A model generated the notes under the pieces. It saw only the letters and a list, made by a program, of their open reading frames with translations. It had not been told where the DNA came from and made no database searches. A stretch of DNA of 64,000 nucleotides from positions 1,568,001-1,632,000 of the forward strand of contig OZ244065.1 of the NCBI GenBank assembly GCA_965215505.1, read 5' to 3'. This document shows positions 50,543-59,155 of the stretch, piece after piece. Position numbers and translations under genes: made by a program. Each line of letters begins with the position of its first letter. Positions within the stretch are counted from its first letter, which is position 1. This DNA comes from Capsulimonadaceae bacterium. Lineage in GTDB: Bacteria > Armatimonadota > Armatimonadia > Armatimonadales > Capsulimonadaceae.

Positions 50543-53500
50543 CTATGAACAGCCCAGGCTCGTGCCGCAGGAAATGCAGCGGTAGCAGGCGCCGTTGCGG
50601 ATCGTGATGGCCCCGCACTCGGGGCAGGGCGGGGCGTCGGACTGCATCCGGTAGATCTCGCGCTCGTGGTCGGCGATGGCCGCCGTGTTGGTGTCTGCGA
50701 GGTGGAACAGGTCGCTGGCCTTGGAGCCGCTGCTGTTGCCGTTCTTGCCATTGCCGCTCCCGTTGCTCAGGCTGCCGCTCTTGGCGTCGTGGGCGGCGGG
50801 GGGCGGCGGGGCCGGGAGCTTCGCGGGGGCGGCGGCGTAGGCCGGGTCGTCCTGGTCGGCGATCAGGCCGACGTTGTGGCGGTCCTCCTTCTGCAAGAAG
50901 CGCAGGGCGAGATACCGGAAGATGTAGTCCATGACGGACTTCGCCATGGGGATCTCTTTGTTGCCGGTGAAGCCGGACGGCTCGAAGCGGGAGTGGATGA
51001 ACTTGTCTACGAGCGTCGAGAGCGGGACCCCATACTGCAAGGCCAGCGAGATGGCGGTGGCGAAGCTGTCCATCAGGCCGGAGATGCTGGAGCCTTCCTT
51101 AGACATGCGGATGAAGATCTCGCCGGGCTGGTTGGTGTCCGGGTACAGGCCGACGGTCAGGTAGCCCTCGTGGCCGCCGATGCTGAACTTGTGGGTGAGG
51201 CCCGCGCGCTCGTCAGGCAGGCGGCGGCGGACGGCCTTCGGCGTGGCGAGGGGCGCGGCCTCCGCTGTCTGCATGGCCTTCTTCTCGGCGGGCGCTTCCT
51301 TGCTGGTGTTCAGCGGCTGGGTGCGCTTGGAGCCGTCCCGGTAGATGGCGACGGCCTTGATGCCCAGCTTCCAGGCCTCCATGTAGGTTTCGGCGATGTC
51401 GTCGGGCGTGGCGTCGTTGGGGACATTGACGGTCTTCGAGATCGCGCCCGAGATGAAGGGCTGGGCGGCGGCCATCATCTTGATGTGGCCCCGGTAATGG
51501 ATCGAGCGCGTCCCGTTCATCGGGCGGAAGGCGCAGTCGAAGATCGGCAGGTGTTCCGGGTCAAGGTCTGGGGCGCCCTCGATGGTGTCGTGTTCGTCAA
51601 TGAATTTGATGATGCCTTCCACCTGCGCCTCGTCGTAGCCGAGCCGCTGCAAGGCCTCGGGGACGGTCTGGTTGACGATCTTCATCATGCCGCCGCCGAC
51701 GAGAGACTTGTACTTGACGATGGCGATGTCCGGCTCGATGCCGGTCGTATCGCAGTCCATCAAAAATCCAATGGTCCCTGTGGGCGCGAGGACGGTGGAC
51801 TGCGCGTTGCGGTAGCCCGAGGCCTCGCCCTCCTCCAGTGCCTCGTCCCAGGCGGTGCGGGCGGCATCGAGCAGGGTGTCGGGGATCAGGGCGGCGTTGA
51901 TCTGGTCCACATGGTCGCGGTGCTTGTGCATGACGCGCAGCATCGGCTCGCGGTTCTCGGCGAAGCCGGCGAACGGCCCGCCGCAGTCGCGGGCGACGAG
52001 GGCGGACTGGTGGTAGGCCCGGCCCGTCATCAGTGCGGTGACGGCCCCGGCGTAGGCGCGGCCCGCGTCGCTGTCGTAGGGCAGGCCCGCCGCCATGAGC
52101 AGCGCGCCGAGGTTGGCGTAGCCCAGGCCCAGGGGCCGGAACTCGTGCGAGCGCCGCTCGATCTTGTCCGTCGGGTAGGAGGCGAACCCGACGACGATCT
52201 CCTGGGCCGTGATCATGATCCTGACTGCGTGGTCGAACGAGTCGGTGTCGAAGGCCGCCGTGCCCTCCTGCCGGAACTTCATGAGATTAAGCGACGATAA
52301 ATTACAGGCAGTGCTATTAAGGAAGAAAAACTCCGAACATGGATTAGATGCGTGGATGCGATCCGTGTTCGCGCAGGTGTGCCAGTCGTTTGCGGTGGTG
52401 TCGTACTGCATGCCGGGATCGCCGCAGACCCAGGTGCCTTCGGCGATGCTGTGCAGCAGGTCCTTCGCGCGGAAGGTTTCGGCGGTCTTGCCGGACATGC
52501 GGAACTTGGTGTCCCAGGTGGCATCGGCCTCGACCGCCTGCATGAACTCGTCGGTAACGCGGACGCTGTGGTTGGCGTTCTGGAAGGGGACGGTGTCGTA
52601 GGCACCGCCCGCGACATTGAACGCGCCCGAGTAGCCGGCGTCAATGAGGGCGTGGGCCTTCAGCTCGGCGTCCTTTTTGCAGTCGATGAACTCTTTGACG
52701 TCCGGATGGTCAATGTTCAGGACGCGCATGCAGGCCGCGCGGCGGGTGCTGCCGCCGCTCTTGATGCTGCCCGCCGAGGCGTCCAGGCCCTTCATGAAGG
52801 AGATCGGCCCGCTGGACCGGCCCCCGGCCTCCAGCGGCTCCTTGGAGGAGCGGAGGGTGGACAAGTTTAGGCCCGACCCGGAGCCGTCTTTGAAGAGCAT
52901 GCCCTCGGTCTTGTAGAGGTCTAAAATGCTCTCCATTGTGTCATCAACTTCATTTATATAGCAGGCACTCACAGCTTGACGTCTGCTTGCCCACCCCAGG
53001 TTGAACCAGACGGGGCTGTTGAAGGCGGCGTACTGGTGCAGGAGGATGAAGCGCAGCTCGTCGTGGAAGGCCTCGGCGTCGGCCTCGGTGGCGAAGTAGC
53101 TGCCCTGCTTGCCCCACTCCAGGATGCGGTCTGCGACGCGGCCGATGAGCTGCTTGACGCTGTACTCGCGCTCCAGGGTGCCGATCTGGCCCCGGAAGTA
53201 CTTGGAGACGACGACATTGGTGGCGAGCTGCGACCACTCCTTGGGGATTTCGACGCCGTTCTGCTCGAAGACGACGGCGCCGTCGCTGCCGACGATGCTG
53301 GCGTTGCGGAGTTCCCACTGGACGCTGGCCCACACGTCCTGGCCGGCCTGGGTGTAGCGGCGCGGGATGGAGAGGCCGGGGGAGTTCGTTTTGGCAGTTT
53401 TTGCGGTGCCGTTCTTCGGCGCGGCGGGTGCCTTGGGGGCCGTCTTGGCGGCGGGGGCGGGCGAAACGGGGGGCATGGGTTCTTGTTCTGTTTCTAATCT

Positions 53501-54100
53501 CTGTTCGACTTCGGGCGCGGCCACGGGGTCCGCGAATGCTTCCAGGTCGGGGCCGGCGACGGCCTCGATGACAGGCTCGGCAATGGGTTCAGCAGCAGCC
53601 TCTACGATGACGGGTTCAGCCTCGGCTTCCATGACAGGCTGGTCCGCTCCTACGGTCATAGGCTCGACGGCCACCATGAGAGGGGCCTCTTCCTCGTACA
53701 CTTCTTCTGCCGGGGCTTCCTCGTCGGTACGGAGGTTGAAATCCTCCCGTGCGGCGCGCAGGGGGCTGGCGAGCGGGGCCGGCTCGTCGGCCAGCATCCG
53801 GGCCATCACGGTGTCTTCAAACGGGTCGTCCTCGGCGAACGGGTCGGAGGCGTCGTCCAGTTGGGCGATCTGGGACGGGGCGGGGAAGTTGCCGACGGGG
53901 ACATCGGCGGGGTGGCGGGCGTCCAGGTCCACCTCATCGCCGCCGAAGAGGGCACCGCCGATGTCGGCGGGTGCGGCCTGTGCCGCCGGGGCCGGCGCGG
54001 CGGCCTTGCGCGCGGCGCGCGGCGGGGCCGGCTCCTCATCACCCATCAGGTCCAGGGTCGTCCCGGACGTACTCTTTTTCCCGTTGCTTCGCTCTGCCAT
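50543..54100 (-). CDS. nrdJ: class II adenosylcobalamin-dependent ribonucleotide reductase
   Basis: FNSPVWFN, SACY, NPCSE, ACNL, APTGT, GAISKT, YRDG, TSCPD-like domain, terminal CxxC..CxxC..GCS; AGGAG RBS before ATG 54100. Confidence 0.96.
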   Translation of the reverse strand: MAERSNGKKSTSGTTLDLMGDEEPAPPRAARKAAAPAPAAQAAPADIGGALFGGDEVDLDARHPADVPVGNFPAPSQIAQLDDASDPFAEDDPFEDTVMARMLADEPAPLASPLRAAREDFNLRTDEEAPAEEVYEEEAPLMVAVEPMTVGADQPVMEAEAEPVIVEAAAEPIAEPVIEAVAGPDLEAFADPVAAPEVEQRLETEQEPMPPVSPAPAAKTAPKAPAAPKNGTAKTAKTNSPGLSIPRRYTQAGQDVWASVQWELRNASIVGSDGAVVFEQNGVEIPKEWSQLATNVVVSKYFRGQIGTLEREYSVKQLIGRVADRILEWGKQGSYFATEADAEAFHDELRFILLHQYAAFNSPVWFNLGWASRRQAVSACYINEVDDTMESILDLYKTEGMLFKDGSGSGLNLSTLRSSKEPLEAGGRSSGPISFMKGLDASAGSIKSGGSTRRAACMRVLNIDHPDVKEFIDCKKDAELKAHALIDAGYSGAFNVAGGAYDTVPFQNANHSVRVTDEFMQAVEADATWDTKFRMSGKTAETFRAKDLLHSIAEGTWVCGDPGMQYDTTANDWHTCANTDRIHASNPCSEFFFLNSTACNLSSLNLMKFRQEGTAAFDTDSFDHAVRIMITAQEIVVGFASYPTDKIERRSHEFRPLGLGYANLGALLMAAGLPYDSDAGRAYAGAVTALMTGRAYHQSALVARDCGGPFAGFAENREPMLRVMHKHRDHVDQINAALIPDTLLDAARTAWDEALEEGEASGYRNAQSTVLAPTGTIGFLMDCDTTGIEPDIAIVKYKSLVGGGMMKIVNQTVPEALQRLGYDEAQVEGIIKFIDEHDTIEGAPDLDPEHLPIFDCAFRPMNGTRSIHYRGHIKMMAAAQPFISGAISKTVNVPNDATPDDIAETYMEAWKLGIKAVAIYRDGSKRTQPLNTSKEAPAEKKAMQTAEAAPLATPKAVRRRLPDERAGLTHKFSIGGHEGYLTVGLYPDTNQPGEIFIRMSKEGSSISGLMDSFATAISLALQYGVPLSTLVDKFIHSRFEPSGFTGNKEIPMAKSVMDYIFRYLALRFLQKEDRHNVGLIADQDDPAYAAAPAKLPAPPPPAAHDAKSGSLSNGSGNGKNGNSSGSKASDLFHLADTNTAAIADHEREIYRMQSDAPPCPECGAITIRNGACYRCISCGTSLGCS

Positions 54101-54237
54101 ACTGTCTCCTTCTAATTTTTCTGTCCTTGCTGTACCGTTGCATCTTCCGCTGAAGCATTTGTGGTACGTCATGCCGCATAGACACGCACGACGCCCAGAA
54201 TACCTTAACCGAAAATGTCTCGGCGAACAGGAAAAGA

Positions 54238-54435
54238 CTATCGCTTTTTGTTGCCAGTTTCCACTGTAGCCTGTGAGTTGCTTATTTCCACTCTCTTCCC
54301 ATCTGGTGTCGGCTTCGGCAGATTGGGCGGATGAGGCGGCACCCAATTTCTGCCTGCATCTGCATCAGTCATGCTGTAAAATTCGCCGTTCAAGGTTTCA
54401 TCTGCTACAATGGCGGCTTCATCCTTAGATGCCAT
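54238..54435 (-). CDS. small peptide 4 (65 aa, ADAGRNWVPPHPP motif)
   Basis: AAGGAAG RBS; shared motif with the three upstream peptides. Confidence 0.75.
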   Translation of the reverse strand: MASKDEAAIVADETLNGEFYSMTDADAGRNWVPPHPPNLPKPTPDGKRVEISNSQATVETGNKKR

Positions 54436-54442
54436 GAGGCTT

Positions 54443-54601
54443 TCACTTCCTTTTATCCTTGCCATCTTCCGGTGACTTCACTGTGGACGGTTTAGGTGGC
54501 GATGGTGGGGTCCATGCTCGACCAGGATCGCCTTGTGTGTCATCGTGTTCACCTGGCGGAACGTCGTTTGTTAGGATAATGCTCTCGGTATCATCAGGCA
54601 T
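54443..54601 (-). CDS. small peptide 3 (52 aa, GDPGRAWTPPSPP motif)
   Basis: Hand translation MPDDTESIILTNDVPPGEHDDTQGDPGRAWTPPSPPKPSTVKSPEDGKDKRK; absent from the ORF track. Confidence 0.75.
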   Translation of the reverse strand: MPDDTESIILTNDVPPGEHDDTQGDPGRAWTPPSPPKPSTVKSPEDGKDKRK

Positions 54602-54607
54602 GATATA

Positions 54608-54787
54608 CTACTTTCGGCCGCCGCCGTGGTCTTTAGATGGCGGCGGGGGAATAGGTTTCTGAGGTGCTGGAGGTGCATTCCAGTTCCGGCCTGGATCTCC
54701 TGAGTATCTATCCAATACTGGATCAGGCTGAGGCTGTGGCATCGGCAAGTTGCGCGGTTCTGGAATGTCATTGCTCACGCTGGTCAT
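54608..54787 (-). CDS. small peptide 2 (59 aa, GDPGRNWNAPPAP motif)
   Basis: ATGA overlap with peptide 1; MTSVSNDIPEPRNLPMPQPQPDPVLDRYSGDPGRNWNAPPAPQKPIPPPPSKDHGGGRK; absent from the ORF track. Confidence 0.75.
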   Translation of the reverse strand: MTSVSNDIPEPRNLPMPQPQPDPVLDRYSGDPGRNWNAPPAPQKPIPPPPSKDHGGGRK

Positions 54788-54984
54788 GATTTACTATCTG
54801 GTGTGCTGTTGCTACCACCGCTGTTTGTGCTTCCACTTGACTGAGAGGCAGTCGTGTCTGCTTGGGGGGCAGATGGCGTGGGTTTGGAAGGAGCTTTCCA
54901 GCCCCGGCCCGGATCACCTTTGATGGAATCACGCTTATCCGGGCTAACCATCTTTTCCATCGTCATGTTTTTGTCTGATGCCAT
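54784..54984 (-). CDS. small peptide 1 (66 aa, GDPGRGWKAPSKP motif)
   Basis: AGGAG RBS overlapping the upstream stop; shared motif. Confidence 0.8.
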   Translation of the reverse strand: MASDKNMTMEKMVSPDKRDSIKGDPGRGWKAPSKPTPSAPQADTTASQSSGSTNSGGSNSTPDSKS

Positions 54985-54996
54985 TCGTGTTTGCTC

Positions 54997-55743
54997 CTAT
55001 CGTATGTTCATAACCGCGAAGGTGACGATTAATCCCAAGCCAACGATGAATGCTATGGTTGCCGTGAGGTTGAGGGCTTCTGTCAATTTACGGAATGTTT
55101 CCCGCTTTCTAGTGTAGCACTCCGACTTCTTAGTAAAATTTTCTTGTTCACCGTCATCTTTGGACAAAGAACTGTCTTTGTTCGATCTCGCGGCTTCTAC
55201 TGAGTAGGATAAGCTCTTCCGGGAAGCGAAGTATGATACGAGGACGAACACAACTGTCAGGCCTAATGAACCCCAACCTCCACGAAGATACCATAAGTCT
55301 TTAAGTGAGTGCTTGTTGCTGAGAAGCGTACCGATGAACGTCGCGGATAATGCCAAGATGCCACTACTTATGGTCAACAGCAAATTGTCAGCTTTTTCGT
55401 AACTAGCTGCAATCAGTTTCTCTTGCTGTTCCTCATACTTGTCGAAGGAGGCGGATGTGTTCTCCCTAAACTTTTCCCACTCCTTCTCTGCACTATCTTC
55501 TACGCTTCCGGAGGTTGCAGAAGGCGTGATAATTATGGAGGGGACAGTTATACTTATTGTCGCACTGCCAAATGAGAACTGCACATCGCTTGGAAGCCCG
55601 GCAGGGGCAACTTGTGCAGTTGGTGCCGCAAGACCTGAATGTACCTTTCCTTGTGTCGCCTCTACTTTTCGAGGTACAACATTCTGCGGATGATGATTGG
55701 CCGCGCCTGACTCCACCTTTTCACTCTGAAGATCAGTTTTCAA
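54997..55743 (-). CDS. three-TM membrane protein of unknown function
   Basis: DNLLLTISSGILALSATF plus two more hydrophobic helices; low GC. Confidence 0.75.
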   Translation of the reverse strand: MKTDLQSEKVESGAANHHPQNVVPRKVEATQGKVHSGLAAPTAQVAPAGLPSDVQFSFGSATISITVPSIIITPSATSGSVEDSAEKEWEKFRENTSASFDKYEEQQEKLIAASYEKADNLLLTISSGILALSATFIGTLLSNKHSLKDLWYLRGGWGSLGLTVVFVLVSYFASRKSLSYSVEAARSNKDSSLSKDDGEQENFTKKSECYTRKRETFRKLTEALNLTATIAFIVGLGLIVTFAVMNIR

Positions 55744-55771
55744 TCTACTGCCCTCTGTCAGACAAACCCGG

Positions 55772-56260
55772 TCACTCTTTTCGCAGGCGACCGCCCTGCT
55801 TCTTCAGCAGGTTCACGATGTCGCGGAACTGGGTGGCGTCCTCGAACTGGCGGTACACGGACGCGAAGCGCACATAGGCGACCTGGTCGATGCGGCGCAG
55901 GTTCTCCATGACCATCTCGCCGATCTCGGACGACGGGACCTCTTTGTCCAAGCGGTTGGTCAGGGTCCGCTCGATGTCGTCGGAGATGGTCTGCAAAGTT
56001 TCCTCGGAGATCGGGCGCTTCTGGCAGGCCACGCGCAGGGAGCGCAGCAGCTTGTTCCGGTCGAACGGCTCGCGGCGCTGGTGGCCGTCGCGGTCGGGCT
56101 TCTTGACGACGGTGAGCTGCATCTCCTCGATGGTTTCAAACGTGGTGAAGCGCCGCTCGCAGTGCTTGCACTCGCGTCGCCTCTTGATGGCCTCGCCGTC
56201 GCGCATCGGGCGCGAGTCCAGCACGGCGTCGTTGTCATGGCCGCAGTACGGGCACTTCAC
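55772..56260 (-). CDS. nrdR: transcriptional repressor NrdR
   Basis: MKCPYC..VLDSR..IKRRREC..C..RFTTFE, ATP cone, DQVAYVRFASVY. Confidence 0.98.
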   Translation of the reverse strand: MKCPYCGHDNDAVLDSRPMRDGEAIKRRRECKHCERRFTTFETIEEMQLTVVKKPDRDGHQRREPFDRNKLLRSLRVACQKRPISEETLQTISDDIERTLTNRLDKEVPSSEIGEMVMENLRRIDQVAYVRFASVYRQFEDATQFRDIVNLLKKQGGRLRKE

Positions 56261-56340
56261 GAAGATGTTATCCTATGCACCCCATCTTATCCCATGCACC
56301 CCACCGGAGCGAAATCCTCCGCGCTGCCTCTCGTCGGTCT

Positions 56341-56393
56341 TTCCTACATATTGTGTAGGTTTTTAGTATATCACACTAAATATGGCCTGTCAA
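56341..56393 (-). promoter_or_regulatory. nrdR promoter with tandem NrdR boxes
   Basis: TTGACA-N17-TATACT; boxes TTCCTACATATTGTGT (56341) and ACACTAAATATGGCC (56373), 32 bp apart. Confidence 0.85.
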
Positions 56394-56487
56394 GGGTTGC
56401 GCGATTCTTTTTCTTCGGTACGCCGTCCTTCAGTTAGCGGGCTGATTAGCCATAATCCTCTATAAGACTTAACAGCAGCGAGGCGGC

Positions 56488-56694
56488 ATGATGACTCCTA
56501 ATCCCATCGGCATTCTGAACGGGCAGGGCGGCGAGATCCTCATCGAGATCATCCAGGACCAGGGGGGCGTCAAAGCCTTCCCTAAGGACGGCAATAAATC
56601 GATGCTGGAGACTTTGGAACGGCTTGCGGAGGACGGCTACCTGGAGATGCTCAGGGAGACGCCGGACACGATCATCTACACGCTCGCCGTCTGA
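56488..56694 (+). CDS. small hypothetical protein
   Basis: GAGG RBS, host-like codons. Confidence 0.6.
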   Translation: MMTPNPIGILNGQGGEILIEIIQDQGGVKAFPKDGNKSMLETLERLAEDGYLEMLRETPDTIIYTLAV

Positions 56695-57840: not shown

Positions 57841-58869
57841 ATGGACGCAGAACAGGTTCGGAAGCGGCTCCGGTCGCGGCAGACGCAGGACCGCATTGGG
57901 GCGGTCAAACAGGCGCTGGGCCTGGACCGGCCGGAGCGGCAGGCGCTTCTTTTGGAGGCGCTGGCCGACAAGTCCCCCTACGTCGGTGCCCTGGCGGCGG
58001 AAGCCTTGGGCGAGAGCGCCGACGACGCGGCGGCAGTGGTGATGACGGAGCGGTTCGCCCACCTGAGCGAAGACGGCCCCGCACGCGACCCCGGCTGCCA
58101 CATCCGGGGCAACCTGGCGTTTGCGCTGGGCCGCCTGCAATGCTATGCCGCCTCGGATGTGCTGCGGGTCGGCATCCGCACGGTGCAGATCGAGGCGGTC
58201 GGGGGCGTCCCGTTCGACACGGCGGCCCACCTGCGTGCGAACTGCGCCCTGGCCCTGGCCCAGATCCGCGACCTGGACAGCGTCCGCGACATCGCCCTGC
58301 TGCTGTTCGACCGGAGCGGCTTCGCGCACGGCCTCCCCGACCCCAGGGTCAAGATGGAGCCGCGCAAGGCGGCGGCGCGGGCGCTCTCCCTGACGGGAAG
58401 CCCCCAGTCGCGCCTGCCGCTGACCCTGCGGCTGGTCCACCCCGAGAACGAGGAGCCGGAGGTCCTGCAAGAGTGCATGCAGGCGCTTGTAGAGCTGGAA
58501 GACCCCCACGCCCTGGAAGTCCTGGAACCCTACCTGAGTCACCGCGACATGCGCCTGGCCGCTTACGCCGCCCTGATGATTGCCCAGACGCAGGCCCCCG
58601 AAGCGGCAGCCCTGCTGGCCGGGGCCATCGAGCGCCTGTCCGGCGATCCCCTGCGCGCGACTGTCTTGGCCCTGATGACTCTGCACACCCCCGAAGCCCA
58701 GGAACTCCTCTACTCCCTGACCCGCTCCAACCGCGAGGCCGTCCGCCTAGCGGCGGTCGAGGCCCTGCCCCGCAGCTCGGCGGGCCGGACCGTTTTGGAA
58801 GCCCTCGCCGCCCACGACCCCTCGGCGCGCGTCCGCGCCGCCGCGAAGGCCGTTATCGCTCAGGAGTAG
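57841..58869 (+). CDS. HEAT-repeat protein
   Basis: L.D.SPYV..LAAEALG, VRLAAVEAL, DPSARVRAAA. Confidence 0.8.
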   Translation: MDAEQVRKRLRSRQTQDRIGAVKQALGLDRPERQALLLEALADKSPYVGALAAEALGESADDAAAVVMTERFAHLSEDGPARDPGCHIRGNLAFALGRLQCYAASDVLRVGIRTVQIEAVGGVPFDTAAHLRANCALALAQIRDLDSVRDIALLLFDRSGFAHGLPDPRVKMEPRKAAARALSLTGSPQSRLPLTLRLVHPENEEPEVLQECMQALVELEDPHALEVLEPYLSHRDMRLAAYAALMIAQTQAPEAAALLAGAIERLSGDPLRATVLALMTLHTPEAQELLYSLTRSNREAVRLAAVEALPRSSAGRTVLEALAAHDPSARVRAAAKAVIAQE

Positions 58870-58966
58870 ATTTTTGATGCCCGCGATTGTGAACGCAGTG
58901 CGTTCAGAATCACAGAAGTCTCAGCGTGTGGCGAATTACCTGCCAAGTGTTCCAATCTGGAACGTA

Positions 58967-59017
58967 CTGCGTTCCAAATCATGAAACCAACTGCGTTCCA
59001 AATCATGAAACCAACTG
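58967..59017. repeat. 24-bp tandem duplication
   Basis: CTGCGTTCCAAATCATGAAACCAA twice in an intergenic region. Confidence 0.8.
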
Positions 59018-59155
59018 AACGGGGTCGAAGAACGCTGAGGTCTGCCCTTCGACGGCACCAAAACATTCGGGAACATTTTTCATTTACCTTTCATCTAAAA
59101 GGGGAATACTAGAATAGCAAGCGAACCACGGTCCGCTGCCTAGAAGCAAGGAGAG

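Follow-up and report, generated by a model that had tools for sequence, protein, structure and literature searches.

A membrane-protein gene and four small open reading frames inserted between nrdR and nrdJ in a Capsulimonadaceae bacterium, with peptides that resemble free copies of a proline-rich protein tail

In a Capsulimonadaceae bacterium (contig OZ244065.1), the genes nrdR and nrdJ are separated by a gene for a small membrane protein and by four very short open reading frames (ORFs), and the question raised by this locus is what these ORFs encode and why they follow a protein with three transmembrane (TM) segments. The window analyzed here is a stretch of 64,000 nucleotides (nt) of that contig, and all positions given below refer to it unless a locus is named. 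A sequence-only reading of the same DNA had described a low-GC (guanine-plus-cytosine) module within the nrdR-nrdJ locus, consisting of a 3-TM gene and four closely spaced ORFs (here pep1 to pep4) that share a peptide core written with varied synonymous codons and that have no modifying enzyme beside them. This description was borne out in each respect, including the positions, the gaps, and the four quoted cores, with the genes on the minus strand. The four predicted peptides are evidently free copies of a proline-rich tail unit that many relatives of the membrane protein carry fused to their own C terminus, because the fused tails and the small ORFs downstream of the relatives repeat the same locus-specific motif.

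The TM gene begins 28 nt past the nrdR stop codon, and the successive gaps from the TM gene through pep1, pep2, and pep3 to pep4 are 12, -4, 6, and 7 nt, the negative value reflecting an ATGA sequence at which the start of pep2 overlaps the stop of pep1. An AGGAG sequence lies 8 nt upstream of the pep1 ATG. All four peptides contain the motif [GA]D[PA]GRxWxxPxxP, in which the D, G, R, W, and three P residues are invariant. The core is followed by a proline-rich stretch and, in pep2 to pep4, by a Lys/Arg-rich end, whereas pep1 ends in DSKS. The peptides are hydrophilic and partly acidic (pep1 to pep3 are near neutral or acidic), contain no cysteine, and have neither a signal peptide nor a hydrophobic segment. 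In the DNA that encodes the motif, Gly is written GGT, GGA, or GGC, Pro is written CCG, CCA, or CCT, and Arg is written CGG, CGA, or AGA. A strict back-translated form of the motif, GGNGAYCCNGGNMGNNNNTGG, matched three times in the window compared with no match in each of 100 shuffles, and a looser pattern that admits pep4 matched four times in the genome of 6,177,771 bases, every time within the cassette (reversed control, 0 matches). The GC fraction is 0.45 to 0.55 over positions 54050-55700 compared with 0.59 to 0.76 in the flanks. No gene for an enzyme, protease, or transporter lies between nrdR and nrdJ, and the TM gene and the four ORFs are the only genes there.

Proline-rich C termini are common among relatives of the TM protein. 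Among 148 family representatives, proline makes up at least 12% of the final 80 residues in 41, and the C terminus closes with two or more Lys/Arg residues in 50. A short unit, such as KGFVPPKPP or EGYVPPKLP, is often repeated two or three times within the tail. Of 11 other loci from the same phylum, 9 were judged by eye to have one to three proline-rich small ORFs immediately downstream of the TM gene and in its orientation. In one such locus, the tail of the TM protein reads GAIPPPPPKKK and is followed by ORFs with GAVPPPPPPKK and GATPPPPPPRR; in another, the tail contains TFGPRSTPVTAQKPS and the ORF that follows contains TFGPPSTPVTPQKPS; in a third, RPVTPPP occurs three times. The same pattern of tail and peptide is seen in other phyla, with a motif that belongs to the lineage (e.g., GRxPxxMTPVP, GAxIPxMQxxP, or RGYAPAQLP / AGYTPPSLP). 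In a low-GC genome of the class to which a Dyella genome belongs, a TM protein of 131 amino acids precedes an ORF of 48 amino acids that contains EGAIPPKT, DGAVPPKT, and a poly-lysine end. ORF calls in the relatives are crude throughout. An ORF walk through 64 family loci was likewise crude and sometimes took the wrong frame (the window included), and its figures are rough: the first chained downstream ORF contained at least 12% proline in 25 of the 64 loci, whereas an upstream-antisense control gave 7; identities in the best shared 9-mer had a mean of 5.58 within a locus versus 4.38 between loci; and 22 of 45 peptides matched their own tail or a sibling peptide at 6 or more of 9 positions.

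In general form, the tail unit opens with Gly and, after one or two residues, continues with an aromatic or aliphatic residue and Pro-Pro. The W-x-[AP]-P-x-x-P core of the window is evidently one more variant of this unit, and the TM protein of the window is, by the same comparison, a tail-less form whose tail units all appear to be encoded separately. Among 5.8 billion proteins, five close homologues of the TM protein were found (49 to 69% BLASTP identity); their termini coincide, and all lack a C-terminal tail. No tail-fused form was found among these close homologues, though the length range of the search would have included one. The sequence-only reading had suggested that the peptide motif should be sought downstream of other TM homologues. 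Distant homologues do have proline-rich peptides in that position, but GDPGRxW is not a signature of the family and the motif is specific to the locus. Two loci of a single genus (L030:2127-2396 in G231 and L029:1914-2111 in G138) share a downstream small ORF that begins MPDEYFDKAIH and has a Pro/Ala/Thr-rich end, and its conservation indicates that a downstream peptide can persist between species even when it is not polyproline.

It had also been proposed from the sequence that the small ORFs might encode precursors of ribosomally synthesized and post-translationally modified peptides (RiPPs), each with a leader and a GDPGRxW core that would be modified in trans by distant enzymes. The presence of four paralogous small ORFs with a variable N-terminal part and a conserved core would fit such a role, as would the Trp and Arg of the core, since these residues are cross-linked in some radical S-adenosylmethionine (SAM) RiPPs. 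The proposal did not find support, however. The peptides are paralogous to a tail that relatives carry in fused form with the same type of sequence, the motif differs in every locus, unlike RiPP cores, the cassette offers no modifying enzyme, protease, or transporter, and the 123 nearest neighbors of the 64 loci include just one radical-SAM match. Precursors of this kind are very improbable and constitute the weakest of the alternatives considered.

The composition of the tail bears on a second alternative, in which the peptides would themselves be the active agents, acting in the cytoplasm as proline-rich peptides on the ribosome exit tunnel or on DnaK, with the membrane protein anchoring or sequestering a fused copy. 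Repeats such as KGFVPPKPP, EGYVPPKLP, and RGYAPAQLP, in which Gly precedes an aromatic or aliphatic residue that leads to Pro-Pro, then to a basic residue and Pro, are in keeping with this, as is the similar core of the window, and the tail units presumably resemble the proline-rich antimicrobial peptides of insects and mammals. The near-neutral or acidic, rather than cationic, character of pep1 to pep3 points the other way, and a motif that is not conserved between loci seems ill suited to a conserved target such as the ribosome, so that this explanation is improbable.

The peptides evidently are real genes tied to the membrane protein, because they have orthologues among the 5.8 billion proteins and because synonymous changes separate them from a variant of the cassette found in a metagenome. 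A profile built from the four peptides found four proteins. Three of these are orthologues of pep1 (P0008, P0009, and P0010; 52 to 60% BLASTP identity) that share an MASDK start, the sequence IKGDPGRxW, and a Ser/Asn-rich end closing in S. The fourth, P0007, is an orthologue of pep4 that retains ADAGRNWVPPH and aligns from its internal Met, which supports the pep4 start at 54435; an alternative start at 54465 would give a product of 75 amino acids. The contigs that encode P0009 and P0010 measure 9572 and 144490 bases, sizes identical to those of the contigs that carry the TM homologues P0002 and P0003. The co-location of peptide and TM homologue rests on this equality of contig size, the remaining two orthologues being on contigs of less than 2 kb that are uninformative on linkage, and it agrees with the tie between peptides and membrane protein that had been claimed earlier.

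The metagenomic variant is an X4 contig with a 92%-identical copy of the cassette at the same place (54056-55594). The window and this variant differ at 124 positions, and the 18 differences listed are a partial sample. Among them, 14 fall in pep2 to pep4, of which 8 are synonymous and 6 are not; the two that alter codons of the motif are both synonymous. In pep3, four of the seven listed differences are synonymous, that in the Arg codon of the motif included. The X4 contig joins position 55594 to 55772 and skips 177 bases, and the variant thus lacks, or has replaced, the first ~59 codons of the TM gene (55595-55771).

In the window, the TM gene and pep1 share one reading frame, in which they are split by a TAG plus four codons, and pep2 and pep3 share another, split by a TAG plus two codons; in the search of own-phylum genomes, the family profile continues past the TAG of the TM gene into pep1. 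The possibility that the peptides are the frameshifted remnant of one long tail was considered and rejected, given that the orthologues keep their Met starts and that changes in the motif are mostly synonymous.

The cassette is a horizontally acquired insertion of ~1.66 kb, as is apparent from the lack of the TM gene in all 23 genomes of the same genus, from empty-site junctions in relatives and in metagenomes, and from the dip in GC content. A single distant TM homologue was found among 60 relatives. In 11 same-genus relatives, in which nrdR is 93 to 98% identical, the distance between nrdR and nrdJ is 12 to 250 nt in nine and ~570 and 720 nt in the other two, and the ribosome-binding site and start of nrdJ align with those of the relatives. 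Several X1/X4 metagenome contigs represent the empty site, joining 54101-54113 to 55774-55776 with 23 to 35 other bases between, and short, nearly identical pieces of the cassette occur in two further studies (X8 and X9). The nrdR-nrdJ spacer looks like a hot spot for small cargo in this genus, given that the two relatives with the wider gaps carry an immunity-type SUKH-1/SMI1_KNR4 gene there, one with a match above the cut-off (G012, L008:1992-2534; E of 4e-7) and one with a weak match below it (G010, L012:1071-1403; E of 4.6e-4).

Table 1. Positions of the cassette genes, their flanking genes, and the candidate promoter in the window.
Feature	Position	Strand	Description
TM protein gene	54997-55743	minus	248 amino acids, TTG start; ORF call
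pep1	54784-54984	minus	66 amino acids, core IKGDPGRGWKAPSKP
pep2	54608-54787	minus	59 amino acids, core YSGDPGRNWNAPPAP
pep3	54443-54601	minus	52 amino acids, core TQGDPGRAWTPPSPP
pep4	54238-54435	minus	65 amino acids (second ATG), core TDADAGRNWVPPHPP; divergent paralogue
nrdR	55772-56260	minus	upstream flank; Pfam Zn_ribbon_NrdR (3.7e-21) and ATP-cone (4.6e-22)
nrdJ	50543-54100	minus	downstream flank; start at 54100 (MAERSNGKK)
Low-GC cassette, ~1.66 kb	54112-55776		between nrdR stop and nrdJ ribosome-binding site; empty-site junctions and GC dip
Sigma-70-like promoter	56365-56393	minus	upstream of nrdR; 11/12 consensus matches; consensus scan only

Co-transcription of the cassette with nrdR is plausible, because the sole strong candidate promoter for nrdR and the cassette in a consensus scan lies upstream of nrdR (Table 1) and the same kind of scan detected no terminator-like site within the cassette on the minus strand. 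The promoter-like site is overlapped and followed by two imperfect palindromes, each around an ATAT core (~56370-56385 and 56343-56359), which may be operator sites (interval 56343-56393). A consensus for the NrdR box had no match in the window with up to three mismatches allowed, and Rfam had no match over 53800-56600. On the other side of the cassette, the N-terminal part of NrdJ (53100-54100) is a low-complexity, Ala/Pro/Glu-rich extension of several hundred residues ahead of the catalytic domain; it is far less conserved among relatives than nrdR and includes an imperfect tandem repeat of 27 nt at 53965-54028. Elsewhere in the window, a perfect tandem repeat of 24 nt (2.2 copies, 58966-59017) lies in a low-GC intergenic stretch at ~58850-59100.

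The TM domain appears to belong to a large, unnamed, and sporadically distributed family. A profile search of 1.84 billion cluster representatives returned 2589 matches at E <= 0.001 and 213 at E <= 1e-10, all of them restricted to the last 150 residues of the TM protein of the window. Members occur in 11 of 401 genomes of the same phylum and in 9 of 400 genomes of the class of the Dyella genome. A scan of named genomes, for which, as for viral contigs, a subfamily alignment of 21 sequences was used, found 54 loci that span the Acidobacteriota, Pseudomonadota, Desulfuromonadales-type bacteria, Nitrospirota, Bacteroidota, Planctomycetota, Chloroflexota, and one metagenome-assembled genome of the Eubacteriales. 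Pattern scans with the alignment of close homologues found no relative in genome contigs or in JGI metagenome contigs, and tblastn with the protein of the window and two representatives found no match in 50,697 phage records.

Family members share an architecture in which a helix leads into a TM hairpin and a helical insert then separates the hairpin from a third TM segment. In an AlphaFold2 model of the protein of the window (248 amino acids; mean pLDDT of 78.8), a disordered N terminus precedes a beta-hairpin at residues 53-66, which is conserved only in the small subfamily of close homologues, and three long helices at residues 81-140, 150-193, and 200-247. In the model, the hydrophobic halves of these helices would form the three TM segments, and the polar halves would pack into a bundle at one face of the membrane.

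That the protein fits no family recognized as described, as the sequence-only reading had stated, holds for Pfam, NCBIfam, PHROGs, and PADLOC. Pfam gave no family at E <= 1, NCBIfam gave no match, PHROGs gave matches only at E >= 0.27, and a sequence-profile search of the PDB gave nothing below an E of 0.037. The one PADLOC match of the protein is weak (LeoBC, E of 4.5e-6) and covers profile positions 402-536 of 601 with residues 78-211, which is the helical membrane part. Across 78 family members, Pfam matches (24 families at E <= 0.01) and NCBIfam matches were weak, scattered, and in no case convincing. The PADLOC matches of these members were also weak and were spread over 12 families, including the CBASS 2TM effector (3 of 78; best E of 7e-5), RTasSLATT (1 of 78; 0.002), LeoBC (1 of 78), PycTM, and CARF_TM. 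In the Atlas comparison, unnamed clusters rank first and the nearest named cluster is PycTM (0.80).

The neighborhoods of the relatives include genes of defense systems. In one genome (G217), the TM gene and the end of an HsdR-HsdM-HsdS operon overlap, and in another (G030), the family gene adjoins HsdR. In a third (G336), HsdS and HsdR flank the TM gene and two peptides, and GmrSD and Schlafen/AlbA_2 genes are also present. This last locus (L039; G336:C1:861000-877000) is a composite defense island within a type I restriction-modification operon, with HsdM, GmrSD, a gene of unknown function encoding 273 amino acids, HsdS, the TM gene and two peptides, Schlafen/AlbA_2, and HsdR following one another on one strand. 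Recurrent neighbors were identified by clustering 682 crude ORFs from the 64 loci, with counts that include related genomes. A gene with HTH_3 plus Peptidase_M78 domains occurs within ~0.3 to 0.9 kb in 12 of the 64 loci; N6_Mtase, N6_N4_Mtase, and RadC each occur in 5 of the 64; and HsdR-like, HsdS, and ResIII genes each occur in 3 of the 64. When the 123 nearest neighbors were compared with PADLOC, there were eight matches to RmrA and capP, three to type III methyltransferase, two to AbiEii, and two to Schlafen. The M78 loci represent about three lineages, namely two Nitrospirota, in which the M78 gene is downstream and on the same strand, a related group of Desulfuromonadales, and one member of the Cyclobacteriaceae.

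These surroundings also bear on the possibility that the TM protein is an ordinary envelope protein with a proline-rich spacer, similar to TonB or RodZ, and that the small ORFs are by-products of tandem duplication at the 3' end of its gene and have no role. Envelope proteins often contain proline-rich, lysine-rich spacers, ordinary neighbors surround many of the family loci, and the duplications resemble simple copies of a 3' end. An ordinary envelope function is harder to reconcile with a sporadic distribution (2 to 3% of the genomes sampled, and none of the 23 from the same genus), with a cassette that is a low-GC insertion, or with family members embedded in restriction-modification operons, and ORFs that lack a role would not be expected to have orthologues that retain start, motif, and end at 52 to 60% identity or to show an excess of synonymous changes. 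The probability of this explanation is low.

The reading favored here is that the cassette is an accessory conflict module, anti-phage or toxin-like, in which the membrane protein would be the effector and the tail-derived peptides its partner; the chances that this is correct are judged to be about even. An effector role is suggested by the neighborhoods, by the weak likeness to PycTM-type proteins, and by the precedent of RmrT, a toxin that depolarizes membranes. Once triggered, the membrane protein would damage or depolarize the membrane, and the tail units, whether fused or free, would be the recognition or regulatory part of the effector. A tail unit might act as a short linear motif that binds either the effector or a partner supplied by the host or a phage, and the free peptides could add to, buffer, compete with, or extend the fused ligand. 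The tail units are disordered, repeated, and locus specific and evolve together within a locus, and for this reason a ligand with a co-evolving site, on the effector or on a fast-changing partner, would fit them. In a more elaborate version, the cassette would be a two-part conflict system, of a widespread and undescribed kind, in which a pore-forming effector is controlled by free copies of its own tail. Fused and free units would be rivals for a single site, whether on the effector or on a protein of the host or a phage; a phage event that depletes or titrates the short-lived peptides, or cuts off their supply, would then unleash the effector; and rapid co-evolution of the ligand with its site would account for motifs that differ between loci. 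This version in its entirety is rather unlikely. A predicted complex of the TM protein with pep1 had a score of 0.18 (mark, 0.32) and counts neither way.

Several results weigh against an accessory conflict module. The cassette itself has no adjacent defense gene, its neighbors being nrdR and nrdJ. The interpretation offered in the sequence-only reading is supported in part: its toxin-like or abortive-infection effector would fit the type I restriction-modification, RmrA-like, AbiEii, and Schlafen neighbors of the family, and the peptides might inhibit or trigger such an effector or be cleaved. Most family loci have ordinary or unannotated neighbors, with restriction-modification or RmrA-type genes in about one-fifth of the 64, and the Desulfuromonadales M78 loci are close kin and thus nonindependent, with the M78 gene divergent and ~400 nt away. 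No library model reaches its curated threshold for the family, Foldseek searches of the PDB and BFVD returned generic helical bundles with none at E <= 0.001, and the PycTM model (PF18967) finds a different gene of this genome, a bona fide PycTM outside the window (G000 C1:5425556-5425840, L097; E of 4.1e-16, above the cut-off), and not the cassette. The family is nearly absent from viral contigs, in which the subfamily pattern found one locus, and no RNA run was listed among the public sequencing runs searched for the cassette. Predicted topology is a further difficulty. Counts of Lys plus Arg place the helical bundle inside and the C terminus outside in 81 of 83 family sequences, in conflict with the free peptides, whose lack of a signal peptide favors the cytoplasm, and the 15 residues after the third TM segment are as rich in Lys/Arg (0.173 per residue) as the inside loops.

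The topology prediction lends itself to another explanation, in which peptides and tails would act outside the cytoplasm, as a leaderless proline-rich bacteriocin, a signal, or a periplasmic barrier that keeps phage DNA from entering (superinfection exclusion), and the membrane protein would be an exporter, an anchor, or an immunity factor. Multi-peptide leaderless bacteriocins are typically encoded as tandem paralogous leaderless peptides beside small membrane proteins, and a Lys/Arg end is shared by the tails and by most peptides observed, with pep1 as an exception. Export or display is nonetheless unlikely, considering that the peptides are hydrophilic and partly acidic with no signal or hydrophobic segment, that no transporter or protease gene is adjacent, that the change of motif from locus to locus disfavors a common external target, and that the charge flanking the C terminus is ambiguous. 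The side of the membrane on which the tail would act may be either one under an effector role.

If an accessory conflict module is the correct reading, then a family of thousands of sequence clusters, distributed over at least seven phyla in addition to the phylum of the window, would constitute a stand-alone membrane effector. Its genetic device would be the re-encoding of the effector's tail as one to four small genes, with the motif reinvented at each locus, and the literature searched contained no account of downstream peptides that re-encode the tail of a membrane protein. Small ORFs, which are usually missed in annotation, would then join the working parts of defense islands, and the system would offer a simple bacterial case of regulation by a short linear motif. 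The paralogy of tail and peptide is firm and can be reused for annotating such loci even if the defense reading fails.

Comparison with known systems sets the cassette apart from several of them. Class I holins are small phage-associated proteins with three TM segments and a charged, Lys/Arg-rich C-terminal tail, and o-spanins are small proline-rich proteins; there is, however, no endolysin or lysis-cassette context here and the peptides have no lipobox, and a test for holins and spanins gave only matches at E >= 0.029 in PHROGs and none at E <= 0.001 in BFVD. In a RiPP cluster, the precursor lies next to a modifying enzyme, protease, or transporter gene, an arrangement that the cassette lacks. 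The dynamin-like Eleos system, to which LeoBC belongs, has a dynamin GTPase domain and a LeoA partner, but the LeoBC match is limited to the helical membrane part, and there is no GTPase gene near the cassette.

RosmerTA is closer in arrangement. In that system, ImmA-protease RmrA antitoxins pair with varied RmrT toxins, and the RmrT of Gordonia phage Kita has a membrane region, depolarizes cells, and protects against some coliphages (PMC10440598). In family loci with an RmrA-like gene (helix-turn-helix plus M78 peptidase), the membrane protein takes the place of the toxin; the cassette of the window differs in having no adjacent RmrA-like gene. No RmrT model is among the 12 PADLOC families matched by the 78 members, and the RosmerTA account consulted mentions neither peptides nor tails (PMC10440598).

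The layout of PycTM (PF18967) is the same as that of the family: an N-terminal helix with a conserved Asp-Lys comes first, the TM hairpin follows, and a helical insert precedes the last TM segment. PF18967 identifies PycTM in 16 of 301 genomes of the same phylum. Alignment of the 83-sequence family alignment with 19 PycTM proteins by hhalign was weak (probability of 69.5 and score of 38 over 65 columns, which correspond to the pre-TM helix, TM1, and TM2) but exceeded its controls (4.6 for a reversed alignment and 23.4 for the best of eight block shuffles). PycTM differs in having neither a proline-rich tail nor a peptide array, and the cassette of the window has no neighboring pyrimidine cyclase (PycC) gene; no nucleotide-signaling enzyme was found beside the family loci examined, and SLATT is absent from the 24 Pfam families matched by the 78 members. 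SLATT-type and CBASS 2TM effectors are likewise small helical membrane proteins that serve as effectors of conflict systems, and a distant kinship of the family with PycTM/SLATT-like effectors may be taken as a lead rather than as membership.

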